A stretch of 64,000 nt of DNA, taken from the NCBI GenBank assembly GCA_963719495.1, contig CAVRCI010000006.1:32001-96000 (forward strand), written 5' to 3'. A program made the translations under genes and the position numbers. Positions 45,883 through 63,778 of the stretch are shown here, piece by piece. The DNA is from an uncultured Verrucomicrobiae bacterium. Its GTDB lineage: Bacteria; Verrucomicrobiota; Verrucomicrobiia; Chthoniobacterales; JAATET01. How positions within the stretch are numbered: position 1 is the stretch's first letter; each line of letters opens with the position of its first letter. The notes under the pieces were generated by a model. That model did no database searches. It was not told where the DNA came from and saw only the letters and a program-made list of their open reading frames with translations.

Positions 45883-46930
45883 TCATTGCGGGACTTTGCG
45901 GCGTTTGCGCATCGCCGCGAGGGTGAGGAGGCCTCCGATGATCATCAAGCCCCAGGTCGCGGGCTCGGGGACGGCGGTGTAGGTGAGGTTCAGGCCCAGA
46001 CCGTCCAGGCTTTGCGCGATGGCGAAGCCGCCGGCATTTCCCGGGTCGTTCGCGAAACTCGAGGTGTCGACCCGAAACTTGTCGGCGCTGAAGGCGCTGA
46101 TCCCGCCGCTCGCTGTGGCGATTGTCCAAGTGTAGCTGGTGCCGGAAACGAAATTCGCGGCCACGCCGGGAAGGTTGTCGAAGCCGAGCGAGTGGACGTC
46201 GACCACAAAGGGGTTCGCGACGCTGCTGTTGATCGTAAGGGTGCCCCCGATATCGAGAAGGTCCCAGTTCGTTCCGGCGGTGCCGGTGGCGGAATTGATT
46301 TCCCACAGGTAGGTGCCGCCGCCGTCCCACGTCTCGGCGACCGTCGTGAGGATTCCGGGGCTGTTCCCCGGCGAAATCGTGCCAGCGATTGTGATCGGAC
46401 CCGTGACGGTGCCCGAGCCGGAGAGGGTCTGGCCCGCGCGGATGGTGGTGCCCGCCGGATTCACGGCGAAGGTTGCGCCGCTGTTTACCTGGATGCGGGA
46501 GGAAGCCAGCGACCCGGTGCTGCCGAGGGACAGGGTGCCGGTCTAGATGGTGGTGACGCCGGTATAGGTGTTCGCGCGGGAGAGCGTGAGGTCGGCGGTG
46601 CCCGATTTGATGAAATTGCCGGTGCCGCTGATGACGTTGCCGAAGTTATAGGACAGGCCACCGTAGCGCATTTCGACCTCGCCGTTGTTCGTGATGTCGC
46701 TGGCGAAGCGGGATGCTGTCGAGGTCGATGCGCTGAGGACGAGCCGACCGCCGTCGACCCGCACGTTGGCCCCGCTGATGGAGCTGGTATTGAGGGTGGA
46801 TGCGAGGTTCACCGTGGTGGTGCCCGCCCTCATGAACCGAAGCGCCCCGCCAGAACCGGCCTGACTAACGCGAATATTTCCGAGCGTGACCGCGTCGGAG
46901 CGATTGGTCCTGAGCGTCTCGCGCCAAGGC
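45883..46930 (-). pseudogene. PEP-CTERM protein with autotransporter-associated beta-strand repeat; 5'-truncated, in-frame TAG at 46543-46545
   Basis: KSGTADLTLSRANTYTGVTTI*TGTLSL, ISPGNSPGIL, AVPEPATW plus TM and basic tail; no signal peptide upstream. Confidence 0.75.
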
Positions 46931-47231: not shown

Positions 47232-47550
47232 GTGAACAAAACCTAAAAGAATAATCAACCTCAAAAGCCCTGTCACTCTCACTGAACAGCAAACGAACCT
47301 GCTCCTCCTGGTCGCAGAGAATCCGTTCGCGGACTTGGAATTCCTTCGGTGGCTTCGACCAAGCTGGAGCGGGTGGATGGCCTCGGCAATGGCGTCGCTC
47401 AAAGCCGAACTCAAGCTCGTTCACATGGCGGGTCGCTGCGAATATTCGCTCACCGAATCTGGAAGACGGTTCGTCGAAAACGTTGGAGCGGAATGCCCAA
47501 CGAACGTGGTCTTCGTCAATTTCCGCTCCAACCTCGAGGAGGCGGCCTGA
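47232..47550 (+). CDS. Possible small winged-helix protein (start uncertain)
   Basis: The frame of ORF 47335..47550 extends upstream as TLTEQQTNLLLLVAENP and contains YSLTESGRRFV. Confidence 0.35.
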
Positions 47551-47551
47551 T

Positions 47552-47965
47552 ATGAGCGCGCTGACGGTTACCCAGACATTCTTGGACCGGTTGGGTCTCC
47601 CCTACCGCGCGGTCGGCGACTTCGCGTTCGAGGCGGAAGTCGAATGCAATAACGACCCCGCCGCGTGTTTGTTCATGCTCGCAGGAAACGATCTGGAAGT
47701 CGCGTTCATGCTGCCCTTCTACACCTTCGTGACCGACGAACTCTGCGCGTCCTTGGCTAACGTCAACCACCAGCTTCCAATGGGGCAATTCGTTGCCTGC
47801 GAGCAACTGAACGTCGTATCTGCCAACCTCGGTGTGCCAACGGGAAAAAACATGAGCCCCGAAATGGTGCAACTGGCCTACGAAGTGACCAAAGACCTCG
47901 TCGAGGCGTGGGCGGAAAAAGTGTGGGACGCAGCGTTGACGGCACTCGAAAATGAGGACGCGTGA
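47552..47965 (+). CDS. YbjN-like domain protein
   Basis: RBS GGAGG; 137 aa, acidic; FLDRLGLPY...LANVNHQLPMGQF. Confidence 0.5.
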   Translation: MSALTVTQTFLDRLGLPYRAVGDFAFEAEVECNNDPAACLFMLAGNDLEVAFMLPFYTFVTDELCASLANVNHQLPMGQFVACEQLNVVSANLGVPTGKNMSPEMVQLAYEVTKDLVEAWAEKVWDAALTALENEDA

Positions 47966-48227: not shown

Positions 48228-49301
48228 TTACCGGAGCCGGATCTGCCGGGGAGGTTTCTGGTTAAACTGGGGGACTCGAAAGTCGACTTCCACCCTGCCT
48301 TCGGATTTGAGCTGTCGCAGCACGTCTTCGGAGTGCTGCCGCTTGACGCCATGTCCAAAACACACTTCGACCACCTCCATTTCATTGGCGCACTTTCCCG
48401 TCAAGATTTTCTCCCGTAGGTCCGCCGCGAATGCCCGCAGCTTTGTTGGCTCCTCGAACATCTCAAGCGAGAGAAACGGAGCGTGGTCCTGAAAATCTTC
48501 CTGGTTGATGTCGAAGTTCGCTTCGCCGTTGAGGGTGTCCTTCGTCCAAGCTGTGTTTAAGAATTTGTCCATCCCAAGAGGATGAGCACTCCCAAAAATC
48601 AACCCGTAGAGCTGCGAACCTTCCTTTTTGATCGAGAACGGCGCAAGGTAGTAGTGCAGGTTGGCGGCGATAAAGGTTCGGTAGAGCTCCACCACTGCTC
48701 GGTGGCAATGGTAGAAGCTATCCGATTTTTTGATCCGCAATCTCATCGCGGGGTGCTCACTGAATCGGTGAAGAAATGATGATGCGACGAATAACAGAAA
48801 GTCGGTGGTGGGTGCGCTGATGAGTTGTCGGAAAACTTCGTCGTCGACGTGGTTCACCCCACAGGGATCAATCAAAACGAGATTGGCAGTGTCCGAGCGG
48901 TGAAAGATCGGCAGCGCCCGCCTAAACGATTCTTCGAAAGGTATCGACCGAACATCCAGCGTTGCATGGGGAAGTTTATCTACGAGCGGACGGAGGTAGG
49001 ACTCGAGCGCCCGCGTTTTCTCTGCATCGGCATCGGAGAAATGAAAATGGAGTTTGATCTTTCCGTCGCTGAGTCGATGTCGGCATTCCAGTGCTTCCCG
49101 CACGACGCGAACGGGGCTGCCGGCCGTGCCCTCGACGTCCTGACCCGGACCAGCGAAGAAATCGAAAATGTGAACTTCGGGCCAGACCGGTTCCGGTCGG
49201 CTTAAAAATACTGGCAGCCACTCCCGGGCATAAAGCTGAAAGAGCTCCAGCTTTGCGAGCGTTCCCTGATCGAAGGGTTTCTCGTGGAAATCCGGTCGCA
49301 C
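48228..49301 (-). CDS. tcmP: Three-Cys-motif partner protein (SAM-dependent methyltransferase-like)
   Basis: T.AKL.LF..Y...WL, DFFAGPG, GSP, LIDPCG, YGLIFGS.HPLG; directly downstream of DUF5131. Confidence 0.82.
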   Translation of the reverse strand: MRPDFHEKPFDQGTLAKLELFQLYAREWLPVFLSRPEPVWPEVHIFDFFAGPGQDVEGTAGSPVRVVREALECRHRLSDGKIKLHFHFSDADAEKTRALESYLRPLVDKLPHATLDVRSIPFEESFRRALPIFHRSDTANLVLIDPCGVNHVDDEVFRQLISAPTTDFLLFVASSFLHRFSEHPAMRLRIKKSDSFYHCHRAVVELYRTFIAANLHYYLAPFSIKKEGSQLYGLIFGSAHPLGMDKFLNTAWTKDTLNGEANFDINQEDFQDHAPFLSLEMFEEPTKLRAFAADLREKILTGKCANEMEVVEVCFGHGVKRQHSEDVLRQLKSEGRVEVDFRVPQFNQKPPRQIRLR

Positions 49302-49312
49302 GTCGGTTCCTT

Positions 49313-50101
49313 CTAGGCAGCAATCAGGTCGTTAAGAAGTCGGGCACGGCTGGCGGAGGACGCAACCGGACTGGCTTCTATTTTAGGAAACTCGCTGTAG
49401 GTGCGACCATCGAGCGTCCGGCCATTCTCTGCCTTGCGGACACCGCCCCATTGCTTGAAGAAGAAGGGAACCCGCTGGGCGCGGCACTGTGCCCGAACGG
49501 ACCGAACCCATGCCGCTTCGATTGGCCGGGCTCCATGCCCACTTTCGCCGCCGACGATCGCCCAGTGAATGCCTTTGAGGCTGAACTCACCCAAATCTTC
49601 AATCAGCGGCTCGATGGAGAGAAACGCCACGGCAGGCTTCGCCTTTCGGAGCAAATCGATACGGGGAAGACCATGTGACCTGTCCTCCACACTCACACCC
49701 CACCAGATATGGGAGGCCGCAGCGGCTTTTTTGAGCTTCGTCCGTAGCAAGCGGCTCATGCGGTCCGCACGCTTGGTCAAAATCTGGTAGGTGTGCCAGT
49801 TGGCCGCCATCATCACCCGGCAGACACTCTCCACGAAATCGTCCGGCACGTCAGGGTGAAAGAGGTCGCTCATCGAGTTGACGAAAATTCGGCGAGGGGT
49901 GCTCCAGCGAATCGGATCGCCAAGTTTCTCGGGAACCAAACGCAGGTCAAAACCGAATTCGAATGGATGACCGGGAACACCCCGGAAGCGCTCAGCGAAG
50001 GTCTCGGCATAGCAATGCTTGCAGCCCGCGCTCACCTTGGTGCAGCCACGCACCGGATTCCAAGTCGAGTCTGTCCATTCGATTTTCGATTTCTCGCTCA
50101 T
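49313..50101 (-). CDS. Phage Gp37/Gp68 (DUF5131) three-Cys-motif protein
   Basis: SKIEWTD.TWNPV.GCTKVSAGCKHCYA, FVNSMSDLFH, LTKR, SIEPL, VGGESG, FFKQWGG. Confidence 0.92.
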   Translation of the reverse strand: MSEKSKIEWTDSTWNPVRGCTKVSAGCKHCYAETFAERFRGVPGHPFEFGFDLRLVPEKLGDPIRWSTPRRIFVNSMSDLFHPDVPDDFVESVCRVMMAANWHTYQILTKRADRMSRLLRTKLKKAAAASHIWWGVSVEDRSHGLPRIDLLRKAKPAVAFLSIEPLIEDLGEFSLKGIHWAIVGGESGHGARPIEAAWVRSVRAQCRAQRVPFFFKQWGGVRKAENGRTLDGRTYSEFPKIEASPVASSASRARLLNDLIAA

Positions 50102-50267
50102 GATGTTATTCTATCACACGGGGTAGGACAATTACGGTCCGCCGGGTTGAACCCTCCTGCCGCTATGTCGTCTGCGATGACAATCGGCACTCGCTGGGCG
50201 AGTAAGTTTGCACTGAGGACGGTTGCGAGCCGTGGATCAACGGAAAAGTGGGCGGGCGTGACCATAC

Positions 50268-51953
50268 CTAGGGGAGACAATTTTCAAGTCTGGCGAGGAG
50301 TTCGAGGGCTTTTTGGACTTCGTGCTCGTAGAGCGGAGAATCCCCCCCGTGGGCCCCTGGGTTGAGGACTCGCTCGGTAGTTTTGAGCACTTCGTCGATC
50401 AGAGCGACGTTCTCCATGACCTTCCAATTTTCGTCCTTGAGCAGGGAGCGAAGGTGCTTGCGGGAACTCTTGAGTCTGCCGCGGTCGGCTGGGTCGAGGC
50501 CGGGAAGCGCGTCAACGTCATCGTCGCTCGCGGGGATTAGGTGGTCACGCTGCGCTTCGGGCGTGCCGAGGAGGACGCGGGCATAGAGGCGGGCCGGAAG
50601 CTTTTCAAGCAGACGATGCCGGGCAGCGCGTAGGTTTTCGGTCAGAGAGAAAAACTCGCCGGGGGGCAGCTTTTTCTTGTCAGCCCATTCACGGTAGCGC
50701 TTGGCCATGTCGTCGGCGGCTTTACGAAGGCAGACGGCGGCTTCGTCGAGTTTGTGGCCATGCAGATAGTCTTCGGCTTTTTGAAGCTCGGTCTTTTCGC
50801 TCTGCGATGTAATGGATGTTGCGGGGTCCCCCACAAGACGAACGAAGGACCAGTCGGGGTGGCTCGGGCCGATTGTGCGTCGAAACTCTCGGTAGAAGCC
50901 GAGGTCGTGAGTGAGGATGATTTTTTGGTAGTTTGCCAAAGCCCCGTCGGTAAGCAGGATTGCAACGACCTTCATCCGGTTACTCGTGTCGAGGCTGACG
51001 AGGAGGTCGTCTAGGACGAGGAGCTTGAGATCTGACTCGTGCAGGTTAACGAGCGAGGCGGCGAACCGGACGGAAAGCGCGAGTTGTGTGAGCTTTGCTT
51101 CGTTCAAAAAGCTCTGCGGCCGAGTGATGGTCTTTCCTGGAATTTGGATTCCGAATTTGATTTCAGGCTTTGTGAATGTCCGCGAATCGAAGTCGTAAGA
51201 TGGGAGTTTTGTAACTCCAAGTTTGAGCGTTATTTTCGACTTGTCGTCGGAGGAAAAATGCTTGTCGTAGAAACGTTGTGCCTCAGTGCTGATTCCATCC
51301 ACGATACCGGGCAGGATTGCGGCGAAGGCTTGCGTGTCCGCGATAAAACGGTCGTAGGCGTATGTTCCCGCCAACCCTTTGTATGCATCGGGGTTCGGAC
51401 TCTCTGACTTGATGGCCTGCCAACTCTCCAGAGGAACCTTCCCCCCTGTCGAGACACAGAAGGGCAGGATTTCGTCCTCAAATAGCGGCCAGAGGTTCAG
51501 CTCTTTAGAATTACGGAAATGGGAGAAGCCAAAGAAGAAGCGGTATGTGATGAAGTCACTGGCTAGGTCACCTTTAAGAATGGCTGGCTGCTGCTGAGTG
51601 CCATGGACGGTTTGCCCGTTTGCATCTCTTCCAATTCGATAGGTGGTATCGGTCTTGGTCGCCATATCACGCAACGTCACAGCGATCTCGCTTGGTCGAG
51701 GGTTTGGGTCTGTTTGTTCGTGAGTGTTGAGCAGATTTTGCAAAACTGCGGGATCGAAATATTTTGCGATTCCTGTATCACCTAATGTCGGTTTACGGGC
51801 GCTTTGCAGGAACGTGTATAGAGACCAGTAGAGGGACGACTTGCCGGCTCCGTTGTCGCCGTAAACAAGGAGGTGGCGGCCTTCTAGGTTGAGCATGAAC
51901 TCGCGGAAGGCTTTAAAGTTGGTAATCTCAATTTTGTGCAAGCGGGATTTCAT
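50268..51953 (-). CDS. ABC-type ATPase with possible C-terminal HEPN domain (PrrC/RloC-like)
   Basis: Walker A GDNGAGKSS, Walker B LLVLDD..SLD, H-loop LTHD; C-terminal RVLNPGAH (Rx6H). Confidence 0.65.
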   Translation of the reverse strand: MKSRLHKIEITNFKAFREFMLNLEGRHLLVYGDNGAGKSSLYWSLYTFLQSARKPTLGDTGIAKYFDPAVLQNLLNTHEQTDPNPRPSEIAVTLRDMATKTDTTYRIGRDANGQTVHGTQQQPAILKGDLASDFITYRFFFGFSHFRNSKELNLWPLFEDEILPFCVSTGGKVPLESWQAIKSESPNPDAYKGLAGTYAYDRFIADTQAFAAILPGIVDGISTEAQRFYDKHFSSDDKSKITLKLGVTKLPSYDFDSRTFTKPEIKFGIQIPGKTITRPQSFLNEAKLTQLALSVRFAASLVNLHESDLKLLVLDDLLVSLDTSNRMKVVAILLTDGALANYQKIILTHDLGFYREFRRTIGPSHPDWSFVRLVGDPATSITSQSEKTELQKAEDYLHGHKLDEAAVCLRKAADDMAKRYREWADKKKLPPGEFFSLTENLRAARHRLLEKLPARLYARVLLGTPEAQRDHLIPASDDDVDALPGLDPADRGRLKSSRKHLRSLLKDENWKVMENVALIDEVLKTTERVLNPGAHGGDSPLYEHEVQKALELLARLENCLP

Positions 51954-54900
51954 ACGCGCCCCTCTTGTTTGATGACGGCGAGAAGATCGGGGCTGTCGGC
52001 AGTGAGGCGGAGAAGACGGTTGCGGATGGGGTGGCTGGGAGCGTTGAGGGTGGTGTGCAACCCGGTAAGTAATTCCCTCAGCGTCCTCTCGTTGGCGGCG
52101 GGGTCATAGTCCGCGAGGTGCGGGGACACGGTGTCGTGGAAGAGCAGGTCTCGTTCGGCCATGTGCTCGCGGAAGTAGCTCTCCATCACGCAGGCGTCGA
52201 TGAGGTCTTCGAGGAATGCTGCGGGGGCGGTTTCTCCCTGCGCTTTGGCGAACTGGATGAGGGGGACTAAGCACTCAAATAGGCTCACCTCGGCGGCGGC
52301 GGGTCTCTTGATGGAGATTTTGTCGAAAAAGACAGCGAACAAGCGGTATGCGTTCCCCGAATACTCAGGGAAATTGTCGCGGAAACAGCAGCGAAAAAGG
52401 TGCGAGTTTAGAACTGCTGTGAGGTAATACAACGACTCGACTTGGCTGGTCATCATCCAACAAGTGTTGTTGAAGAAAAAGCCGTCGCTTTGGTCCAAGT
52501 AAAACGGCATCTGCTGGGCGATGTCCTGGTATATAATCTTCGGCCCGCGGAACAGATTGAGATAGTCCTCTGTAGGGTTGTTGTCCAATTCGAGCCAATG
52601 GTGTTGTCCAGGAAACGGTTTGTTCGGGTCTTTTCGTTTCCGCTCTCGCCCGTAGCTGCATTGACCGCGAGCCTGAAGCTGCGGCTTGTGCTGGATCAAG
52701 TGTTGATATACGGCAGGATACTTCTGCTCAAGATACTCGTATGCGCCGAACTTTACGATCAGTTGATAGGCATCGGCCCAATTTGTCTTGTAGCGCTCGA
52801 TGTCACGACCTCGAAGCAACCTTACAATCATTTCAGCGCTAGCAGGGTCTCTGGCGATCAACTCATCACGCTGGCTCTGATTCAAATAAAACGCTTCATT
52901 GTAGCCCGTAATGATTCCTCGCGAAATCTGAAGCGACCACTTCTCAAGTGGAATGCCTTGCTTGATGACTTTTACCCGAATGGCCTGACGCTCAGGTGAC
53001 ACTACCACCCAAGGCTCTGAATTAAGGTTTTGAAGCACTACGGCGTGGCTTGCAAAGTATCCAGCAGGGTCTGCCATCGCGGCCTGATCATCTGAAACAT
53101 AGCAGGCCAATGTGGAAGATTTGGAATCTTCGTTGGCGATCTTTAGGACGCAGGTGTAGGTGGTTGCGGCACCAAAGTTCTGGGCCATGCCAAAATCCAA
53201 AACGGATTCGGTGTTCAGGGATGCAAGAAGGCCTCGCAGTGATTCGCCGTAATTGGACCGCATCCATTTATTTGATGTGATAAAACAGAGACGGCCACCT
53301 CGACAAAGAAGCTGGCAACCTTGCTCATAGAAAAAGCAATAGACATCACCTCGTGCGGCGTAGGTCGCAAAGTTCACCTTCCACTTTTCTTGGATTGGCG
53401 TTCCCGCGAATCGTTCGACCGAGATGTAGGGCGGATTGCCTATGACTATGTCGAAGCCGTCCTTCAAGGAGCGACCGAACATCCAATGCGGATCGAAGAA
53501 GTCGGCGGTCGATTGGGGATCGAAGGGATCCCAATCGGCGAGGTGGGCGGCTTTCGCGGAGTTCACGGCTCCAAGACTGCCCGCGAGCGTCTCGGCGAGC
53601 TTAATGCGCAGGCCTTTGATCTTCTTCTGCAACGCCAGCTTCTGGTCGCGCCGCTGTATGGTGAAGTGGCTGTGGTAGGCGTCTTCGATTTCCTTTTCGA
53701 TGGGGGCGATGAGGGACTCGATGAAGAGGTCTTTGTCCGAGATCGGCAGGCCGATGAGGGTGTCGGCGGCGACAAACTTCGTTTCCAGATTGGGCAGCGG
53801 ACGGATTCCGTGATTGTCCTTTTTGTTGCGGTTGGTCTTCTGGTCGCAGACGAGGGAGATGAAGAAGCGGAGTTTGGTGATCTGGATGGCGATGGGCTGG
53901 ATGTCCACGCCGTAGAGGCAGTTCTCGATGAGGTAGAGCTTGCGGCCGTAGTCGTCGTTGTTTTCGGCGAAGGCGCGTTCGAGTTCCTCGCGCATGGGGG
54001 CGGAGTCAAGCTTGGCGAGCTGGGTCTGCTTCCAGCGGTCGTTGTCGGGGTCGAGTTTGCCGAGGATATAGACGAGCTTGTGGAGGACGCCCATAGGGAA
54101 AGCGCCGGAGCCGCAGGCGGGATCGAGGATTTTCAGGGCGTCGATGGCGTCGATTAGAGCGGCGACTTCGACGGGCGTGAAGGCGTGGTCTCTCTCGGTG
54201 TAGGCGAAGAGGAGGTCGAGGCCGGCGCGGGCGTCGGATTCCACCATGCGGACCCTTTCTACGAGGGCACGGGTGAGGTGGGCTTTGAGGGACTCGTCCA
54301 CCATGTAGTCCACGATGGGGCGTGGGGTGTAGAAGGAGCCGGTCTGCTTGCGGGCGGTGGTTTTGGTTTCTTCGTTGTAAGAGGCGAGGAGGTTCTCGAA
54401 AACTTTGCCGAGGAGTTCGGGGTCGAGGGCTATTTCCTGATCGATGGGGGTGTTCTCGACGATGGTGAACTTGTAGCGGTTCAGGATGGTGATGAGGCCG
54501 GTGACGCGCTCGGCCTTGCGCTTCTTGTCGCCGTAGGCTGTGGAGAGGTCGGCAATTTCCCCACTGTCGAAGAACAGGCGGTCGGGGATGTGGGGGCGCT
54601 TCTTGGGATTGCGGGAGAAGCCATCGAGGTAAAGTTTCTTGTTTGTGCCTTCCTCGGTGCGGTCGAGGCACTCGAAGAGTCCACCATTGAGGAAAGGAAT
54701 GTCGGCGAAATGCGTGAGGGCGACGTCGGGGCCGTCGGCGAAGAGGCTTTCGTAGCGGTAGAGATTATTGACGTCGTAGGTGGCGCGGTTTTTCTGGAAG
54801 CCCTCGTCGGTTGCGAAGATGCGGTAGGGTTTGCCGTTGCTGTCCTTGCCCATGCGCTGGTTGAGCGTGGCAAAGAAGAGATTTTGCAGGATGGCCTGGT

Positions 54901-55792
54901 AGTAGGTGGAGCTGGTCTCGCTTTCGGGATCGAAGCCCTTGAGAACTTTGGCGAGATCGGTGGGGTGGAAGAGTTGCTCGGGGATGAGGCCCTTTTCCTT
55001 GAGGAACCAGCAGAAGATGAGTCGGGTGAGCAGGCGGATGAGTCCGGTGGCGCGGCGTTTCTCGTCGTCGGGTTCGAGGTCGGCGGGGAACTCGACCTGC
55101 GGGAGCGCCCAGAAATACCAGTTGGCGAGTTCCTTGTAGAAGCGCTCGTTGAGCAGGTCGACGTTGAAGATTTGCTCCCACGCGGCATGAAGGGTGTCGA
55201 AGTCGGTGATGGGCAGCTTCTTCGGATGTTTGAGTTCAGACAGCGCGAGCGAGGCGAGGATGTCTTGGTGGCCACGGTGGGGATTCGCGATGGAGATGTC
55301 GCGGATGAGGGTGGCTTTTTCGAGGACGTCCTTGCTGTCGTCGATCTTGTTCCGTCGACGGTTGATGACGGCGATGGTGAGCCGGTCGCCGTGTTTGAAG
55401 ATCACCATGACGGGCATGGGGAAGAGGCGGTTGATCTGGCGGGTGATCGCGGAGAACTTGCCGCGAGCGTAATCGGTGCCCTTCAGCTCGATGGCGATGA
55501 AGATGTAGGACTTGAGCAGGGCGCGCTGGACGGAGTCGTCGGTGAAGAGGCTGGATTCGCGGCCGAGTTCCCGATCGGTGAGCTGAAAGAGGAGGTCGGC
55601 GGATTTCCACTCTGGCACGAGGGCCTTGACTTGGTCGAACGGGTGGCCGGCGGCGAAGTCAGCGAGGAAGTCCTGCGGCTTGGAACCTGCGCCGACGAGG
55701 AATTTGTCGCTCTTGTAGCCGAGCTTCGCGAGCAGCTGGCGGGCCGCGTCTTTGAGCGGTAGGGACTGGAAATTGGCGAGAGTGGCTTTCAT
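51950..55792 (-). CDS. Eco57I/type IIG-like N6-adenine methyltransferase with TRD
   Basis: FLNGGLF, LGKVFENLL, GSFYTP, DPACGSGAF, IGNPPY, FITSNKW; lower-GC C-terminal TRD region. Confidence 0.88.
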   Translation of the reverse strand: MKATLANFQSLPLKDAARQLLAKLGYKSDKFLVGAGSKPQDFLADFAAGHPFDQVKALVPEWKSADLLFQLTDRELGRESSLFTDDSVQRALLKSYIFIAIELKGTDYARGKFSAITRQINRLFPMPVMVIFKHGDRLTIAVINRRRNKIDDSKDVLEKATLIRDISIANPHRGHQDILASLALSELKHPKKLPITDFDTLHAAWEQIFNVDLLNERFYKELANWYFWALPQVEFPADLEPDDEKRRATGLIRLLTRLIFCWFLKEKGLIPEQLFHPTDLAKVLKGFDPESETSSTYYQAILQNLFFATLNQRMGKDSNGKPYRIFATDEGFQKNRATYDVNNLYRYESLFADGPDVALTHFADIPFLNGGLFECLDRTEEGTNKKLYLDGFSRNPKKRPHIPDRLFFDSGEIADLSTAYGDKKRKAERVTGLITILNRYKFTIVENTPIDQEIALDPELLGKVFENLLASYNEETKTTARKQTGSFYTPRPIVDYMVDESLKAHLTRALVERVRMVESDARAGLDLLFAYTERDHAFTPVEVAALIDAIDALKILDPACGSGAFPMGVLHKLVYILGKLDPDNDRWKQTQLAKLDSAPMREELERAFAENNDDYGRKLYLIENCLYGVDIQPIAIQITKLRFFISLVCDQKTNRNKKDNHGIRPLPNLETKFVAADTLIGLPISDKDLFIESLIAPIEKEIEDAYHSHFTIQRRDQKLALQKKIKGLRIKLAETLAGSLGAVNSAKAAHLADWDPFDPQSTADFFDPHWMFGRSLKDGFDIVIGNPPYISVERFAGTPIQEKWKVNFATYAARGDVYCFFYEQGCQLLCRGGRLCFITSNKWMRSNYGESLRGLLASLNTESVLDFGMAQNFGAATTYTCVLKIANEDSKSSTLACYVSDDQAAMADPAGYFASHAVVLQNLNSEPWVVVSPERQAIRVKVIKQGIPLEKWSLQISRGIITGYNEAFYLNQSQRDELIARDPASAEMIVRLLRGRDIERYKTNWADAYQLIVKFGAYEYLEQKYPAVYQHLIQHKPQLQARGQCSYGRERKRKDPNKPFPGQHHWLELDNNPTEDYLNLFRGPKIIYQDIAQQMPFYLDQSDGFFFNNTCWMMTSQVESLYYLTAVLNSHLFRCCFRDNFPEYSGNAYRLFAVFFDKISIKRPAAAEVSLFECLVPLIQFAKAQGETAPAAFLEDLIDACVMESYFREHMAERDLLFHDTVSPHLADYDPAANERTLRELLTGLHTTLNAPSHPIRNRLLRLTADSPDLLAVIKQEGRV

Positions 55793-56832
55793 CGGGGTTC
55801 GTCGCTGAACTTTTCTTCGGCGCGTTGGAGGGTGAATTGGAGTTCGCGGCGAAGTTCTTCGCGGTCGGGCAGGTAGAGTTGGTATTTCTGCACGAAGAGC
55901 TGGCTGTTCATCTGGTAGGTGGCGTATTCCACGAGCAACTCATCCTTGTGTCGGGAGAGAATGATGCCGATGGGCGGGTTGTCGCCTTCGAGATTCTCCT
56001 CGGTGGCGAAGTAGCCGAGATACATGTTCATCTGGCCGATGTCGTGATGCTCCACCTTGTCCATTTTCAGGTCGAGGAGGACGAAACAGCGCAAAATGCG
56101 ATGGTAGAAAACGAGATCGACGCGGAAGTGGGTGTTGTCGAGGGTGATGCGGTATTGTCGGCCCACGAAGGTGAAGCCTTTGCCAAGCTCCAGTAGGAAC
56201 GGCTGGAGGTGGTCGCAAAGCAGACTCTCCAGTTCGGTCTCCGTAAGGTGAGCGGGTTCCGGGATTTTGAGAAACTCGAAAACGTAGGGATCGCGGAGCA
56301 GTTCCGCTGGTTGCGTCGCACTCTGCCCCTCTCGCGACAGCGCCAAAATCTCTTCCCGATCCTTTCCCGCGGCAAGCCGGAGGAAAAGCGAGGTCCGTTT
56401 CTGCCGCAGCAACTCTTTCACGCTCCATTTCTCCGCGATGGCCTGTTTCTCGTAAAAACCGCGTTCCAATCCGTCATTGATCGAGAGCAACTCGACGTAG
56501 TGCGACCAACTCAATTGTCCAGACAGCGTCTGGACTTTTGGAAAAGCCAGATAAAAGGCCTTCATCGTCATCACGTTGCTGCGGCTGAATCCCTTGCCGT
56601 GCCGGAGGGTGAGATCCCTTGCCAACGTCGCCACCAACCGCTTGCCGTATTCCGCACGAATGCTGCCGCCCTGCTCGAACTCCACAATGTCGCGCCCGAT
56701 CTCCCAATACGTCTGCGTGAGCTGGACATTGACGGCCTGGATCGCCCGCGTCTGGCCGGAGGTGTAAACCTCGGAAATCTTTCCCAGCAGGCGCTGATAG
56801 CCGGTATCGGTATCGGTGGCGAGGTCGCTCAT
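55789..56832 (-). CDS. YhcG / DUF1016 PDDEXK nuclease-domain protein
   Basis: YWEIGR.IVEFEQ, GKGFS, LSWSHY, RDPYVFEFL, LLELGKGF.FVGRQ, GQMNMYL. Confidence 0.93.
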   Translation of the reverse strand: MSDLATDTDTGYQRLLGKISEVYTSGQTRAIQAVNVQLTQTYWEIGRDIVEFEQGGSIRAEYGKRLVATLARDLTLRHGKGFSRSNVMTMKAFYLAFPKVQTLSGQLSWSHYVELLSINDGLERGFYEKQAIAEKWSVKELLRQKRTSLFLRLAAGKDREEILALSREGQSATQPAELLRDPYVFEFLKIPEPAHLTETELESLLCDHLQPFLLELGKGFTFVGRQYRITLDNTHFRVDLVFYHRILRCFVLLDLKMDKVEHHDIGQMNMYLGYFATEENLEGDNPPIGIILSRHKDELLVEYATYQMNSQLFVQKYQLYLPDREELRRELQFTLQRAEEKFSDEPR

Positions 56833-59800
56833 GTCTTGTCGTCCTTGATGACCAGCCAGGTGACGAGTTCGAGGTCGGTCTTTTCGTGGACCTGATCTTT
56901 CGCGTCGGGCAGGACAAAGCCTCGTCCGGATTGCAGACCGGAGGCGGCCCGCTTGCGGAAGGTGGCGGCGAGGGAGTCAACGGCTTTTTTCAGCAGCGCA
57001 TCGTAGGCTTTCATCTCACTTCCATGGTTGGTCTCCTGGTCGAAGACATTGCAGAGCTGGGTGTCGGCTTCCGCTTTCCCGGAGCAAAGGAGGCGGTAGA
57101 TGTCGAGAATCTGCTTCGGGTGGGCGAAGCCGAAGCGGACGTTGCCGTCGTCGAGGACGTAAACGAGGAAGTAGGGATGGAGCGGGTTGATCGACTCGCT
57201 GGGTGTGGGTTTGGTGGCGAGTTCTCCGTCGCGGTGGCCCTCCAACCGGAAGCAGAAGATAACGCCGGGGCCGATGACCTTGTAGTCGGGATGCGGCGGG
57301 ACGCAGGTGTAGAGGCCGAACGGGGCGGCTTCGAGGGCCTCCTTGTTCGCCTCGATGTATTTGAGGAGTTCGAGGCGAAAGTCGTCGAGGGTGAACTCGG
57401 TGAGCGAAACGCTGTCGCCGAGGTCTTCGAGATCGAGAATCTCGTCTTTGAGCCGAAGGAGCTGTTTGTCGCGGTAACGGAGGTCGTCGGAGATGATGTC
57501 CTCGATTTCCTCATTCTTGAGCACGTTATCTTCGAAGGTGGCGGAGAGGTCCACGAGGGCCATGCGGGCCTCGACGCGGTTCTTGAGGTTGATGTATTTG
57601 TTGAGGTCCTCGGTGGGCCAGAAGTTCACGAGGTGGACAACCGAATTGACGCTGCCGATCCGGTCGATCCGACCAAAGCGCTGGATGATGCGGACGGGAT
57701 TCCAGTGGATGTCGTAGTTGATCAGGTAATCGCAGTCCTGGAGGTTCTGGCCTTCGCTAATGCAGTCCGTGGCGATGAGCAGGTCGATCTCACCCTGTTG
57801 CGGCATGGACGGAATTTTGGCGCGGTTTTTGGCTCGCGGAGAAAAATTGGTGAGAATTTGATCGTATGCGCCCTGGCCGAAGGTAGTGCGGGTATCACCG
57901 CCGCCGCAAACGAGGGCCAGATGAATGCCGAGTTCCCCGTGGGCCCATTCGAGGAGTGACTCGTAGAGGTAGGTGGCGGTATCGGCGAAGGCGGTGAAGA
58001 CGAGAACCTTTCGGTTCGGCTCGCCGAGCTTGTTCGTCGTGGGATCTTTGACCTTGGCCGCGATGAGCTTCTTGAGGTCCGCGAGCTTGGCGTCGGTCTC
58101 GGGAGTCACGTCCTGCGCGGCGTTGTAGAGGATACGAAGTTGGTCCTTGTCGCGCTTGAGGGCTTTAAGCCAGCCGTCCTCGCCGTCTAGGCGGAGGTGG
58201 TCCAATCGAAACTTCAGATTGCCGCCCACCTGCATGGCGTCTTCGAGGTCTTCGTCGTGACCAGGGTCGTCGAGTTCCAACTCGAGGTCCTCGGATTCGG
58301 GGCTCTGCTTCGGCAATTCCTGGAAGTTTCTGATCTTCCGTTCGAGGCTCTCGATCTTGGCGATGGTGCGCTCCATCGTGATCTCGAAGGATTTCACGGA
58401 GCTTTCGAGGCGCTTGAGGAAGTTCACCTTCATCATGCCGATGAGGAAGGTTTCGCGCCCCGCCTGGGTGAATGGGAAAGCCCCCGTTTTTTCGTAGTCG
58501 GCTTTGTGCTCGGGCAACACGAAACGCGAGGGATTGAAGAGCGCGAGTTTGTAGCCGGCGATTTCGTCGTTGAGTTTGTCGTAGGAGAGGAAGCGTCCGC
58601 GGAGGTCGATCTCGGGGTAGATGGAGACGGGCTTCTCGCGCTTCGGGAAGCCGCCGAGCTGGGCGATGGTGGCCTTGTAGTATTTCTGAATGTGCTTGCG
58701 CGAGCGGGCGATGGTGACTTCGTCGAGGAGCTTGAAGAAGGCGGCGTTGAGCTTCTCCAGCAGTTCGCCGGTCCTCCGCTCGTGGGTTTGCTTTTTCGCC
58801 CAGACGGAGAAGACCTTTTGCGCGGTGGCGAGGGTTTCTTTGAGGCTGCCGACGCCGATGGATTCCGCGAAGGCGTCGTCGCGGTTCTCGGTGAGGAAGT
58901 AGAGCTGGTTGCGGAGGTCCTTGAGGTCGTTGTTGACCGGGGTGGCGGAGAGGAGGAGGACCTTGGTGCGGACGCCGGATGTGATGATGTCGTCCATGAG
59001 GCGCTGGTAGCGACTTCTGCGGATGATGTTTCCTTCCTCGTCCTTCTTGCCGGGCGTGTTGTTCCGGAAGTTGTGCGACTCGTCGATGACGATGAGGTCG
59101 TAGTTGCCCCAGTTCAACGTCGCGAGGTTGATGTCGCCCGAGTAGCCGGTCTCGCGGCTGAGGTCGGTGTGCGAAACGACATCGTAGCGGAAGCGGTCGG
59201 CGACGAAGGGATTGAGGAGGCTGTTGGCTTTGTAAACCGTCCAGTTGTCGCGGAGCTTTTTCGGGCAGAGAACGAGGACGCGCTCGTTCTTCAGCTCGAA
59301 GTATTTCATGACGGCGAGCGCCTCGTAGGTTTTTCCGAGGCCGACGCTGTCCGCGATAATGCAACCGTTGTGGCGGAGAATTTTGTTGATGGCACCCTTG
59401 GCCCCGTCCTTCTGGAACTCGAACAGCGCTTTCCAGACACCACTCTCGAAGAGGCTGGTCTTGCCGAGATCCGCGTCGGTCTTGCCCGCGTCGCCGAGGA
59501 ACTTCTCGAAGACGTGAAAGAGCGTTTTGTAGTAAATGAACTCCGGCGGGTTGTTCTCGTAGAGTTGCTTGAGGTAGTTCAGGACGTCCTCTTTGACGTC
59601 CATCACAAGGGTTTCGTTGCCCCACAGTTCCTCGAACCATTGCTTGAGTTCCTGACGGTCTCGGTTGCCGTCGACGATGAGGTTCAGCTCGATATTGTTG
59701 CCTGCGTTGCCAAGGCCGAGGCCGCGAACGGTAAAGTTCGAGCTTCCGAGAATGGCGTCCTCCACGCCGCCGGTGGCGACGTGATACATCTTCCCGTGAA

Positions 59801-60167
59801 GGAGATTGGATTGCTTGATGGTCTTGATGTCCACCTTGCGTTTGATCCAGTCGGCGCACTCCCTGGCAACGCGTTTTTGCTGGAGCCGGTTCGAAAGTTC
59901 CAAACCGTCGGCGTCGATGATGAAGGCCTTCTTCTCGGTCTTGTTCGGGTCGAGGCGGTTGACGAAGGACGGCTCACCGAAGAGGAAGTCGAGGTGTCCG
60001 ATGCGCTCGAGTTCTTCTTTGAGGGCGTCGTAGGCGCAGATCGTGAAGTAGGCGGAGACAATGGAGAGTTTCGAGCCGGTCTGCGCTTTCGTCCGCAGGA
60101 AGTCGGCGACGGTTCCGCGAGTGTGGTTGTCGCGAAGGCCCGAGTCGTTTGTTGATGAAGGTGTCAT
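56829..60167 (-). CDS. PLD-nuclease / SNF2-type helicase fusion
   Basis: LHGKMY...GSSNFT (PLD), DSVGLGKT, DESH, SATP, SEGQNLQ, QRFGRIDRIG. Confidence 0.9.
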   Translation of the reverse strand: MTPSSTNDSGLRDNHTRGTVADFLRTKAQTGSKLSIVSAYFTICAYDALKEELERIGHLDFLFGEPSFVNRLDPNKTEKKAFIIDADGLELSNRLQQKRVARECADWIKRKVDIKTIKQSNLLHGKMYHVATGGVEDAILGSSNFTVRGLGLGNAGNNIELNLIVDGNRDRQELKQWFEELWGNETLVMDVKEDVLNYLKQLYENNPPEFIYYKTLFHVFEKFLGDAGKTDADLGKTSLFESGVWKALFEFQKDGAKGAINKILRHNGCIIADSVGLGKTYEALAVMKYFELKNERVLVLCPKKLRDNWTVYKANSLLNPFVADRFRYDVVSHTDLSRETGYSGDINLATLNWGNYDLIVIDESHNFRNNTPGKKDEEGNIIRRSRYQRLMDDIITSGVRTKVLLLSATPVNNDLKDLRNQLYFLTENRDDAFAESIGVGSLKETLATAQKVFSVWAKKQTHERRTGELLEKLNAAFFKLLDEVTIARSRKHIQKYYKATIAQLGGFPKREKPVSIYPEIDLRGRFLSYDKLNDEIAGYKLALFNPSRFVLPEHKADYEKTGAFPFTQAGRETFLIGMMKVNFLKRLESSVKSFEITMERTIAKIESLERKIRNFQELPKQSPESEDLELELDDPGHDEDLEDAMQVGGNLKFRLDHLRLDGEDGWLKALKRDKDQLRILYNAAQDVTPETDAKLADLKKLIAAKVKDPTTNKLGEPNRKVLVFTAFADTATYLYESLLEWAHGELGIHLALVCGGGDTRTTFGQGAYDQILTNFSPRAKNRAKIPSMPQQGEIDLLIATDCISEGQNLQDCDYLINYDIHWNPVRIIQRFGRIDRIGSVNSVVHLVNFWPTEDLNKYINLKNRVEARMALVDLSATFEDNVLKNEEIEDIISDDLRYRDKQLLRLKDEILDLEDLGDSVSLTEFTLDDFRLELLKYIEANKEALEAAPFGLYTCVPPHPDYKVIGPGVIFCFRLEGHRDGELATKPTPSESINPLHPYFLVYVLDDGNVRFGFAHPKQILDIYRLLCSGKAEADTQLCNVFDQETNHGSEMKAYDALLKKAVDSLAATFRKRAASGLQSGRGFVLPDAKDQVHEKTDLELVTWLVIKDDKT

Positions 60168-60389: not shown

Positions 60390-60422
60390 AAAAAAATCCC
60401 GGGGAGCTGGGCTCCCCGGGAT
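60390..60422 (-). terminator. Rho-independent terminator
   Basis: atcccggggagc-tgg-gctccccgggat with a 7-U tract on the minus strand. Confidence 0.7.
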
Positions 60423-60481
60423 CGTTCCGCGTTATTGATGGCTGTCGTGATGTCGAGCATGATGGTGACTCGTTCGTCACC

Positions 60482-60874
60482 ATGAAACCCGGCCCCACCC
60501 CTGAAGCTCGTCTCCGCCATTGCGGCATCGATCTCGATGACGTTGAGGAGAGCTTTGCTCGCAGTAGCGGTCCAGGTGGCCAAAATGTAAACAAGGTCGA
60601 AACCATGGTGAGACTGATCCACCGTCCCAGCGGAATTGCGGTCGCTGCGTCAGAACATCGGTCGCGTGAAATGAACCGCCGGGCTGCTTGGGAACGTCTG
60701 GCAGGAAAGTTCGAGGCCTTGGACGAGGCTCGGAAGCTGGAACGAGCTGCAAAAAGATCCCAAAAACGAGCTCAATCCGGACGGCGACCGCCGGGCGTGA
60801 AGCGGAAGATGCTCGAAGCGAAACGCCGCCGAGGAGAGGCGAAGAAGCTCCGAGGGAAAGTGCAGGACGGCTAG
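60482..60874 (+). CDS. arfB: Alternative ribosome-rescue factor ArfB/YaeJ-like peptidyl-tRNA hydrolase (element-borne)
   Basis: FARSSGPGGQNVNKVET.V.L.H.PSG...RS..MNR; basic tail RRPPGVKRKMLEAKRRRGEAKKLR. Confidence 0.88.
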   Translation: MKPGPTPEARLRHCGIDLDDVEESFARSSGPGGQNVNKVETMVRLIHRPSGIAVAASEHRSREMNRRAAWERLAGKFEALDEARKLERAAKRSQKRAQSGRRPPGVKRKMLEAKRRRGEAKKLRGKVQDG

Positions 60875-62547
60875 CCGGACTTCTTTGGGGCTGATGTTGG
60901 TGGGTTGCGGACGGGGGAGGACATCAGGCGCTGTTTCATTCCGTTCCGGTATTCGATGACGACGTAGGGCCAGTCATTTGCCGGGAGGTTTTCGACCTCC
61001 GTTCCCTTGAATTCCGGCGCGTGGCCGAAGCGGAAGGCGGTTATGGATCGCACGCGGCGCCGAATTTCCATTTGCAGCGCGAGTCGGTTTTTCGGATCAC
61101 CTTCCGAAATGAGGGCTTTGAACTCCACGATGCCTTCGGCGACGGAATTACGGGCGGCAGCCATGTGGTCCCGCTGCTCGTATAGATCGTTCAGCTTGGC
61201 TTCGGTGTCTTCAAGTTCCTGGGCTGCGGCGGCGGCCTTTACCTTCGCGGCTTTCAGCAGCGGGTCCGGCATGTCGGCCATGTTATCGAGAAATTTACCG
61301 ATGTCGGCCTGGAGCTTGGCGGTGTGCATTTCGGTCTCGGCGATTTGGGCATCGAGCTTGTCGCACTCATCGTCTGGGCCTTGGCGGACAAGAGTCGCCC
61401 AGTCGAGTTGCTTTAGATGGTTGAGGACGATCTTTTCAAAATGCGCGTAAGGCCAGAATTGGCTCTTGGTGCCGTCGTGAAGGCTTACATCGGACCGGAG
61501 GTAGCGTTGATCTCCACGGTTGCGAGCCTGGCCCCTTGAAGACTTATCTATATAGTGCATCTTGTTTCCGCTGTAACCGTCGATGACGAGGCCGGAAAAA
61601 AGGTTGTTCGTCCTCAATCCGCGAGGGCCGGTGGGAGCCTTCGGGCGGTTGTGAGCGCCTTGCCAAAGCTCGGGTGAAATGACGGCGGGGTAATATCCCT
61701 CAATGGGAGGTCCATCCGGGATACGGCTGCGGGTTTCGGAGCCGAGGCGGTGAGGCTGGTAGATTCCGAGGGCGGCTTTGTTGTTTAGAAAATACAGGAT
61801 GTTGCTCGACGCTCAACGCGGGCCGTCTCCCCATGTCTGAATGCCTTCGTTGTTGAAGGTCCGGGCGATGAGACGTTTTCCGAGTCCTTTTCCAGCAAGT
61901 TCGAACATCCGAACGAGCAGCGAAGCGCGGTCGGAGATGACGCTGTAGGCCTTGGTGCCGTCCTCAGATTTCGTCAATTCAAGCCAAGCGGGGCAGAGTT
62001 TGCTCTGCGGCGTTTTAGTTTCGGCTGCCACGAGACGCTTTTTTGCCCAGGCTTTGGCGACGCGGTGGCCTTTCATGGCTGACTCCTCATGCGCCCGCAC
62101 CATCATCAGAATCGAGAGAATGAGGTCAGTGGGATTTTGGTTGATGGCGTCGCGGTTGTAAGCCTTCTCGTCTGCCAGCGTAACGATGGTGATGCTGGCC
62201 CTGATGATGTTGGTGAACAACGCAAGCGCGTCCAAGATCTCGGTGCGGCTCAACCGGTCGAGTGATTCCACGAGAAGGGTCGCCCCAGCGGGAATGCGCC
62301 CGGTCTCAATGGCAGTCATGAATCCCGCGAGGGCTCCTTCGGTAGCATTGCGGCCCCGGTATGCACTGACTCCGAGGTCCCTGAGATTCAGGCTGTAATC
62401 AAGGCGAAGCCCGATTACGGCGGCGTATTCCTCGCTTGCTTCGGTTTGGCGCCGCAGGCTGTCGCCCTGCATCTGCTGCAGCGATGAGAAGCGGATATAC
62501 GAAAAGGCTAGGGACCTTGTTTTTGTCGGATGGGTACGATTCTCCAT
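60871..62547 (-). pseudogene. Large serine recombinase with an in-frame TGA at 61813-61815
   Basis: YIRFSS..Q..GDSLRRQ, LVESLDRLSR, RAHEES..K..R; the frame continues past the stop (PR*ASSNILYFLNNKAALG...YYPAVIS.ELW...NLFSGL) into ORF 60871..61617. Confidence 0.85.
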
Positions 62548-62621
62548 CCTGAGCTTCTCCTGTCCTCGCTGGGGCAGGTGAAGCGCTATTTTCTGAGAAA
62601 GTAAACTTTTTTGGAGGATTG

Positions 62622-62647
62622 GGCCAGCACCTGTTGACGTGCTGGCC
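62622..62647. other. Putative attachment (attL/attR) site
   Basis: GGCCAGCAC-ctgttgac-GTGCTGGCC: 9-bp perfect inverted arms exactly where arfB homology stops. Confidence 0.65.
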
Positions 62648-62746
62648 ACCCGGTCCGCTGGCCCGCGCGATGAGGACGTGCAGATCGTCCTCGCGCACGC
62701 CGAGGCGCGCGAGGCGGGGTGCGAATTCATCCGGGATGATGGGCAT
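62633..62746 (-). pseudogene. arfB: 5' fragment (38 codons) of the host arfB, interrupted after GGQHVN
   Basis: MPIIPDEFAPRLARLGVREDDLHVLIARASGPGGQHVN followed by unrelated sequence; high-GC host-like codons. Confidence 0.8.
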
Positions 62747-62836: not shown

Positions 62837-63778
62837 ATGCCCGCCACCCACCAAATCGAATCCGACGCCGCCGGGACCCACGACGTCCTGAAGAACGCCG
62901 ACGCCGGCATTCGCCTCGTCGTCGCCCGCACCGGGGCGGAACCGATCAGCCTGGCACGCCGCGCCGCCGATGGGTCGTGGGTGGGATTCCTCCATCGCGA
63001 CGGCGAGACCGGGAAACCGGCGGACGGGTGGGCGAATCACGCGACGGTGATGGGCTACTACCTCCACCGGCTGGTCGAGGAGCGGTCGACGTATCGCGAC
63101 GCGGTCATCACGGGCGGGAATCACGGTTTTCTCCGCAGCTTTGCGTTCGCCGAGCCGACCTTCGACGCCGGGCGCGGCTCGCTCACCTACCACGTGGCCG
63201 CCGCGGACGTGCCGCCAGCCGCTTATCCTCTGCGGGTGGCGCTCGATCTGACCTACCGGCTCGACGGTGAGGCGCTGCGGGTGGAATTCGAATTTCGCAA
63301 CGAAGAACCCGCGACCGAGGCCCACGTGAGCTTCGGGCTGCACCCGGGGTTTGCGGTCACGTCCGTGCTCGACGCGGACGTCATTTTTCCGGCGGGGACC
63401 TTCGTTCGCCACCGCGCGCCCGATAATTTCCTCGATGGCCACACGGAGCGCATCCCCTACGGTGGTGGGCTGATGCCGCTCGCCAAGGACGACCTGCCGG
63501 GCTCGTTCCTGCTGGGACTCGACGAGGTGCCCGACCCGCGGTTCACGCTCCGCGACGAACGGGCGGGACGCGAGGTCGTTTGCGATTTCGCCGGCTGCCC
63601 CTACGTCACGATCTGGAGCGACCTCGGCCCCTTCATTTGCATCGAACCTTGCTGGGGATTGCCCGACAGCCGACCGCAACGACCTTTCGAGGACAAGATC
63701 GGCATCCAACGCATTGCGGCGGGCGGCTCGCTGCGGGCCGGCTTTTCGATTCATCCGCGACTTCTCGACCGATCATGA
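62837..63778 (+). CDS. Aldose 1-epimerase family protein
   Basis: NHGFLR, YP......Y.L, FGLHPGF, FICIEPCWG. Confidence 0.8.
   Translation: MPATHQIESDAAGTHDVLKNADAGIRLVVARTGAEPISLARRAADGSWVGFLHRDGETGKPADGWANHATVMGYYLHRLVEERSTYRDAVITGGNHGFLRSFAFAEPTFDAGRGSLTYHVAAADVPPAAYPLRVALDLTYRLDGEALRVEFEFRNEEPATEAHVSFGLHPGFAVTSVLDADVIFPAGTFVRHRAPDNFLDGHTERIPYGGGLMPLAKDDLPGSFLLGLDEVPDPRFTLRDERAGREVVCDFAGCPYVTIWSDLGPFICIEPCWGLPDSRPQRPFEDKIGIQRIAAGGSLRAGFSIHPRLLDRS

Follow-up and report, generated by a model that had tools for sequence, protein, structure and literature searches.

A defence island of Chthoniobacterales, very probably mobilised by a large serine recombinase, in a split arfB-class gene

Why should a ribosome-rescue gene break off just after its catalytic motif and be followed by a recombinase gene and by a second, complete gene of its own kind? 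This arrangement lies near the right end of the window, by which we mean the whole stretch of 64,000 nucleotides that was analysed here, and its parts are collected in Table 1. A preliminary description of this DNA held that a host-like arfB 5' end stops after SGPGGQHVN, that a large serine recombinase (LSR) begins about 85 nt further on, and that a diverged, full-length arfB of lower third-position GC lies tail-to-tail with it. Each of these features is present as described; the complete gene overlaps the LSR stop by 4 nt and has a GC3 of 0.58, compared with 0.84 in the stub and 0.82 in the epimerase gene. We conclude with considerable confidence that the window contains a defence island of Chthoniobacterales, site-specific and mobilised by an LSR, which follows a disrupt-and-replace strategy on an arfB-class gene.

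Table 1. Features of the arfB-LSR module and its surroundings (window positions).
Feature	Position	Strand	Remarks
Host aldose-1-epimerase-family gene	62837..63778	+	conserved flank, divergent from arfB; Pfam PF01263
Host arfB 5' stub	62633..62746	-	38 codons, ends GGQHVN; 89% aa identity over 38 aa to intact G004 gene
Chimeric ORF	stub frame continues to 62399	-	ORF list
attL	62618..62647	-	9-bp host arm 62647-62639, 8-bp spacer 62638-62631, 13-bp element P' arm 62630-62618
Open stretch in LSR frame, P' arm to conserved ATG	62548..62630	-	putative remnant of att-spanning N-terminal extension
LSR gene	60871..62547	-	TGA in frame at codon 245; has catalytic YxRxS motif, lacks zinc-ribbon cysteines
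Carried full-length classical-ArfB/C12orf65-like gene, inverted	60482..60874	+	130 aa, RF-1 domain; att-core Val codon GTA at 60587-60589
Promoter-like motif of carried gene	60435..60463	+	two hexamers 17 nt apart, 8/12 sigma-70 matches
Terminator-like hairpin	60395..60423	-	13 pairs and a T run; would end LSR-direction transcription ahead of cargo
Defence cargo	48228..60167	-	Pfam, NCBIfam, PADLOC

The stub must first be shown to be the remainder of a gene that was once whole. Three of five genomes of the same genus (G001, G003 and G004) possess an intact gene divergent from the epimerase gene, the empty site that the preliminary description had called for, and in the remaining two the gene is located elsewhere. 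In family f9 the same divergent pair is present at 16 of the 30 arfB loci examined, and the epimerase flank is matched in 40 of 61 relatives. Because the intact gene of G004 occupies the same place, and because an identical 13-bp arm follows the stub in two further genomes, G013 and G072, the junction is not a chance resemblance. These data also bear on the suspicion that the source genome, G000, is here an assembly chimera or contaminated. The insertion lacks its far end, another in-frame stop is close by at ~46543, and the public reads listed comprise no RNA run and one low-depth DNA run, possibly from the source sample, in which no piece among those listed bridges position 62630 (55 further pieces fall outside the listing); this run weighs in neither direction. 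Such an artefact is scarcely credible, since the same junction and 13-bp arm recur in two genomes of different genera and the module shares 71% DNA identity with that of G013 over 2.4 kb. The same run covers the internal stop of the LSR gene and no difference is listed there.

Neither the 3' half of the host arfB nor an attR was found in G000 by tblastn, blastn or pattern search. The usual right flank of host arfB consists of purC and xer, and in G000 purC is on contig C12; the missing 3' piece and attR may have been lost or may fall in an assembly gap. If contigs C6 (1-94600) and C12 (90516-124097) join, about 128 kb of extra DNA would separate the stub from purC, and the arfB site would be a large accretion hotspot. 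In G000 the island is immobile.

The ends of the element can be read from the sequences that adjoin the two halves of the target. The P' arm stands behind the stub in G000, G013 and G072. The arfB 3' halves of G013, G270 and G416 have its reverse complement in front of them, as do, allowing one mismatch, those of G015 and G413; in G148 and G341 this reverse-complement arm survives with no 3' half directly following. The arms of attL form an inverted repeat. Since the same arm follows the stubs and its reverse complement precedes the 3' halves, attP would consist of a 13-bp inverted repeat around an 8-bp spacer. Judging from these element ends, crossover would take place two to three codons beyond GGQ, at Val-Asn. 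The original proposal that the element targets the GGQ codons therefore holds in that arfB is split and fails in that the junction lies beyond GGQ itself. The proposal that the element uses the most conserved DNA of the gene may also need qualification: GGC-CAG-CAC resembles the att arm of this LSR clade, and the target may have been chosen for that likeness and not for its conservation; sister LSRs have the arm in common and insert elsewhere.

Searches with these sites had a limited yield. Class-wide, the attL pattern matched in 4 of 401 genomes, and two of these matches (G045 and G751) looked like chance. The arm pattern matched in 14 of the 102 genomes of f9 (control, 3), where 4 places were already known, only G413 was real of 6 further places inspected, and 6 others lay outside the inspection. 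Viral sequences gave 0 matches to the attL pattern and 2 to the attR arm, neither of them near an arfB half or an LSR gene. A strict form of the arm pattern, applied to LSR loci, found 3, missed known cases and was set aside.

The recombinase itself matches the Pfam Resolvase family (PF00239, E 3e-17), above the cut-off, and has the catalytic motif YIRFS. The Recombinase family (PF07508) is matched by its broken half at E 0.002, below the cut-off, and its homologues carry both PF07508 and PF00239; the Recombinase domain and coiled-coil C-terminal part typical of LSRs were accepted as present on this basis. The zinc-ribbon position reads LVIDGYSG, and PF13408 is absent from the closest homologues except P0016. 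The stop at codon 245 falls in a column that is invariant across 27 other aligned proteins; a recoding of TGA was considered and rejected, given the intact LSR relatives and the ordinary TGA stops of neighbouring ORFs. The closest homologue with DNA context, P0003 of G013, is intact and 66% identical; another, P0004, is 62% identical. P0004 and P0149, a carried-type arfB protein, both have 4749 nt given as their longest contig and may share it.

It had been suggested that homologues of this enzyme would recurrently neighbour one intact and one split arfB. This is so in G013 and, as a relic, in G072, and is not so at 185 of 187 LSR loci: only G013 and G000 have an RF-like neighbour, many of the loci being short, and the LSR of G013 is the one intact enzyme with context that is arfB-linked. 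A scan of the genome collection with the LSR gave 1 locus, and an alignment scan found no arfB-linked LSR among the best 80 of 514 metagenome loci or the best 80 of 413 viral loci. Six sister LSR loci (47-62% identity) have a similar arm and no arfB. The count of 2 in 187, taken with the sister LSRs at other sites, indicates on sequence grounds that arfB targeting is a trait of a narrow LSR subclade. Four of the sister LSRs (L070:3006, L089:1501, L071:3102 and L098:208) are immediately preceded by a TAGAGC..TTTCAAG motif, which may be the terminus of a repeat or IS element serving as target; the longer form of this motif has no exact copy in G000.

The DNA between the arm and the LSR gene has a further property. 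From the arm to the inner ATG it is in frame with the LSR and free of stops in 8 of 8 close LSR loci, and its length takes six different values, all separated by multiples of three. On the other side, an ATG in the LSR frame is located 31-34 nt upstream of 6 of 8 attR arms, one of these six (G015) having a stop in the arm, and in G013 the frame can be joined across both element ends without a stop over 40 codons. These frames suggest that attP probably lies within an N-terminal extension of the LSR frame of about 40 codons. All of the LSR domains are downstream of attL. Integration would then strip the LSR of its own start and place it behind the host arfB promoter.

What kind of gene does the island carry? 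Its product matches PF00472 (E 1e-24), and GGQ is invariant in 47 of 47 aligned rows. In a structure model the fold matches domain 3 of release factors, with a predicted basic helix at residues 106-128 that contains invariant K/R, with no codon-recognition domains, and with strands at 42-47 and 53-56 that have no alpha-i helix between them. By sequence, C12orf65 ranks above YaeJ for this protein, and against the NCBIfam model NF006718, with its cut-off of 100, the carried copy scores 64 bits and the intact host gene of G004 57 bits. The gene thus fits the classical ArfB/C12orf65-like class rather than class 1 (E. coli YaeJ/ICT1); the available part of PMC6514570 groups "classical ArfB" with C12orf65. 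The name arfB was apt insofar as this is an RF-1-domain, rescue-factor-like gene and misleading insofar as it denotes E. coli-type ArfB, since the protein fails the NCBIfam ArfB cut-off and belongs to the class that lacks alpha-i.

Carried-type copies, at least 63% identical, occur in 10 of 401 genomes of the order, and 44 protein clusters are at least 64% identical to the carried type. A tree of both arfB copies, proposed in the preliminary description, places the carried copy outside the host clade. Ten copies from families f1, f2, f8 and f9 are mixed in the carried clade (99/86), the mixing of families being the informative part of the tree, as the carried group was picked by similarity; eight host genes of f1 form a separate clade. 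A second tree left out three long-branch rows and did not include G419. This placement contradicts the idea that the LSR flips the DNA between two inverted GGQ stretches, so that the full copy would be a rearranged host gene, and that idea was rejected. The two GGQ stretches, on either side of the LSR gene, do make up an inverted repeat of 28 nt and 79% identity, as might be seen in an invertible segment. G013 and G072, however, retain both halves of the target besides the carried copy, no chimera of a host 5' and a carried 3' part was recognised in the loci examined, and no such joint is present among the low-cover read pieces listed. We regard inversion as highly improbable.

The carried gene appears to be maintained and may have signals for its own expression. 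For carried copies dN/dS was 0.05-0.12 in 13 of 21 pairs, dS being saturated in the other 8, and for host controls it was 0.10-0.26. By these ratios the carried-type genes are under purifying selection, as is expected of any sole copy, and in 10 of 10 genomes that hold a carried-type gene it is the only uninterrupted one (among these ten, the copy of G350 runs off its contig, and the genomes G338 and G350 have a completeness of 82-86%). Both upstream hexamers are invariant in G000, G013 and G072; a sigma-70 promoter scan found 0 promoters, the motif with its 8/12 matches falling under the 9/12 threshold of the scanner. Stems similar to the hairpin are located at the same place in G013 and G072.

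A complete arfB in the element would itself offer the LSR a target, and the codon usage of the att core is of interest in this respect. In 5 of 5 inverted in-element copies the core begins with the Val codon GTA, whereas GTA is used at 0 of the 38 other Val codons of these five copies and in the att core of 3 of 57 host copies. Among carried-type copies without a host stub, 5 of 7 read GTC (G017 and G323 keep GTA), and the re-invaded carried-type copy of G013, described below, reads GTC-AAC. Of the 16 positions of arm plus core, in-element copies match 11.2 on average and host copies 14.1. Fisher values of ~1e-5 to 1e-6 overstate the case for GTA, because the copies come from just two lineages: one clade accounts for four of the five GTA copies, and GTA arose about twice independently. 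A better argument is that this rare codon has been kept across saturated dS. On balance we favour the view that the GTA core is a selected self-immunity of the element against its own LSR. In G013 a target with a poor resemblance to the host-side arm (GGG CAG AAT) was nevertheless used, and so arm mismatch alone is not protective.

These observations may be weighed against another possibility: an ordinary LSR island that entered a dispensable gene and that, through a single aberrant excision, picked up the full arfB as a passenger, since retained through drift and linkage and with its GTA merely inherited. Since tmRNA and smpB are present in G000, an arfB-class gene is probably not essential in these bacteria, and 24 of 102 f9 genomes have no arfB match at E 1e-16. 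(In G011, at L055:3838-4213, the host arfB is frameshifted in the absence of any element.) The concentration of most GTA copies in one clade would also suit a passenger, as would the serine-recombinase elements that disrupt dispensable genes, described in the accessible portion of PMC5704250. A passenger is nevertheless unlikely, because GTA persists at dS values from 0.9 to saturated with none at the 38 other Val codons, because GTA is found again, next to SNF2 relics, in a second lineage of arfB (G014, with G323), because the upstream motif is conserved, and because the copy has outlasted the LSR in G072 and G285.

Comparison with other genomes strengthens the disrupt-and-replace interpretation and suggests a history for it. 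In G013 the element is complete: over 22 kb it comprises an unbroken LSR gene, a carried copy of 82% identity, cargo of type I RM, and attL as well as attR. The 5' half of its target is 88% identical to the carried type rather than to the host type, and the split target gene points toward the epimerase gene, as a carried copy would after loss of an old LSR and stub. As these sequences indicate, the island has in this genome re-invaded an older carried copy. G072, a member of another family, holds a relic that consists of a stub, the arm, the last 42 residues of the LSR, a 79% copy and a host 3' remnant, with SNF2, methylase and DUF5131-TcmP genes as cargo. In G285 there are a stub and an inverted copy with no LSR, in G338 only a co-directional copy, and in G014 an inverted copy of the second arfB lineage, with an SNF2 relic and a 3' stub of the host gene next to it. 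The arrangement of G013, the relic of G072 and the empty sites together bear out the earlier proposal that the element splits arfB and would compensate with a whole second copy. The relics may be arranged as stages, of which the order is our reconstruction: insertion, LSR decay, loss of the host halves, domestication and re-invasion.

Not every locus can be arranged in this way. Five genomes (G015, G148, G270, G341 and G413) have an intact forward arfB followed by cargo, with an attR arm 1-6 kb on and no LSR, and part of them have an extra arfB 3' half; G416 has two tandem 3' halves. An intact arfB with small cargo (TetR, efflux, HxlR-like), an attR arm and no recombinase was recorded at L063:3645-9736, L324:8076-13313, L326:8060-12827, L287:9771-11870, L357 and L332. 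Such loci may be satellites that repair the gene classically or relics brought by recombination; the pattern in the five genomes is unaccounted for by the disrupt-and-replace model.

The remainder of the island is defensive in character. Its cargo comprises a PLD-SNF2 helicase, a YhcG nuclease, a type IIG-like methylase, an AAA ATPase and a DUF5131 plus TcmP pair. The helicase and methylase, with YhcG in the middle slot, occupy 51950-60167 (-), and the SNF2 piece is 96% identical in protein to the relic in G014. The ATPase gene (50268-51953, -), which has AAA_13 and SMC_N matches and a 77% relic in G014, adjoins the methylase gene and its product ends in R-x-x-N-x-x-x-H, an arrangement that resembles the architecture of RloC/PrrC-like anticodon nucleases. 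The DUF5131-TcmP pair (48228-50101, -; PDC-M30 in PADLOC) belongs to a block with 83% DNA identity to the G072 element, up to 48175, and such identity across families implies recent exchange. Further to the left are a 160-aa ORF with no Pfam match at the low-GC island edge (47483-47965, +) and an autotransporter-repeat/PEP-CTERM gene (45883-46833, -), which has an in-frame TAG near 46543 and is 83% identical in DNA to a repeat gene that adjoins the element of G013.

Could the carried arfB mainly serve this cargo by freeing ribosomes that tRNA- or mRNA-cutting effectors have stalled in the course of a phage attack, with gene replacement a side effect? The cargo is of defence type in G000, G013, G072 and G285, the ATPase of G000 has its putative likeness to a nuclease, and PMC6514570, in the part available, ties rescue factors to such conflicts. 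The idea is very improbable in view of the inconstancy of the cargo, with type I RM in G013 and a DUF4011 helicase in G285, beside a constant arfB-LSR module. Further, among the 187 LSR loci no arfB copy was seen beside LSRs that target other sites.

Returning to disruption and replacement, we propose the following mechanism. The attP of the circle, two 13-bp inverted arms around the 8-bp spacer, would recombine with the H-V-N codons after GGQ; the splitting of the gene there is shown by comparison of occupied and empty sites. The island carries a whole foreign arfB tail-to-tail with the LSR, furnished, as the alignments indicate, with its own conserved upstream motif and the terminator-like hairpin. 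The carried copy would restore peptidyl-tRNA hydrolase rescue activity at once, with no need of excision, and the synonymous recoding of its att core (GTA for GTC, plus arm mismatches) would block self-insertion by the LSR. The LSR would then decay, states of which are seen as a stop in G000, a deletion in G072 and its absence from G285; the host halves would erode and the carried copy would become the resident gene, which, when it again reads GTC-AAC, would be open to re-invasion as in G013. In its widest form this proposal describes a natural "break-and-rescue" selfish element, in which an LSR hits the DNA of a rescue factor's catalytic loop and carries a functional, self-immune copy, producing repeated xenologous replacement across families of Chthoniobacterales, with domesticated copies that regain susceptibility and are re-invaded, and with an attP in the LSR frame that would make the enzyme a bacterial serine counterpart of suicidal integrases, under control of the host arfB promoter once integrated. 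We consider the arguments for and against this full form to be evenly balanced.

If the model is correct, a mobile element may treat the gene that it hits in a third way, by supplying a whole and probably self-immune substitute, besides rebuilding one end or excising on demand. It would also provide a visible mechanism for the xenologous displacement of a translation gene, with the intermediate states preserved in genomes, and the island's copy is now the sole arfB-type gene of several related soil and water bacteria. Selection is indicated on an unstudied bacterial rescue factor that resembles C12orf65/MTRFR, in cells equipped with tmRNA as well; a gene involved in human mitochondrial disease is related to this class. 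For the recombinases, an intact LSR is available in G013 with deduced attB and attP, in a clade that has one att arm in common and has switched targets.

How does the island compare with known systems? SXT at prfC and e14 at icd are elements with tyrosine integrases that restore an end of the gene they target. As with these and with elements at the 3' ends of tRNA genes, the arfB island supplies target sequence and function would survive, and SXT also hits a release-factor gene. In the end-rebuilding elements, however, the gene is restored at the junction, whereas the arfB island leaves its junction broken and brings in a whole gene of foreign origin, which stands apart in inverted orientation. 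Homing endonucleases are associated with cleavage-resistant alleles, and cleave-and-rescue drives have been built synthetically. There too a conserved catalytic motif is the point of attack of a selfish element, which brings along a functional version recoded so as to be spared; in contrast, the arfB island involves neither nuclease nor gene conversion, would spread by site-specific integration, and its probable immunity is read from one codon. Among LSR elements, integration inside protein genes is described for comM/Mg-chelatase, prolyl isomerase, rumA and mutT in the available parts of PMC10083194, PMC5704250 and PMC4701971. These share with the arfB island the LSR architecture, a short crossover core, a conserved internal target that is disrupted, and an LSR co-oriented with it; they differ in that the target is left broken or is restored by excision, and those parts mention no carried whole copy. 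Neither arfB nor RF-1 appears in the accessible portions of Durrant et al. and its 8 supplement files, and no element that both targets and carries arfB was found in the literature covered, which was mainly open-access and partial, most subscription journals and bioRxiv supplements lying outside it. With classical ArfB and C12orf65 (MTRFR), as the part of PMC6514570 at hand describes them, the carried protein shares a single GGQ domain, a basic C-terminal helix and no alpha-i insert; its bacterial lineage differs in travelling on a mobile element and scores below the cut-off of the E. coli-type ArfB model. Suicidal integrases of the SSV1/pTN3 type, according to the available part of PMC8371274, are tyrosine recombinases exclusive to archaea, with attP inside the integrase frame. 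The likeness to them, an attP within the enzyme's reading frame that integration splits, is for our LSR deduced from frames; the arfB-island enzyme differs in being a bacterial serine recombinase from which integration would remove no more than a short leader, leaving a downstream ATG and every domain in place. What sets the island apart from these systems is thus the probable combination, in one LSR-borne defence island, of a disrupt-and-replace design, likely self-immunity and serial displacement of the target gene.
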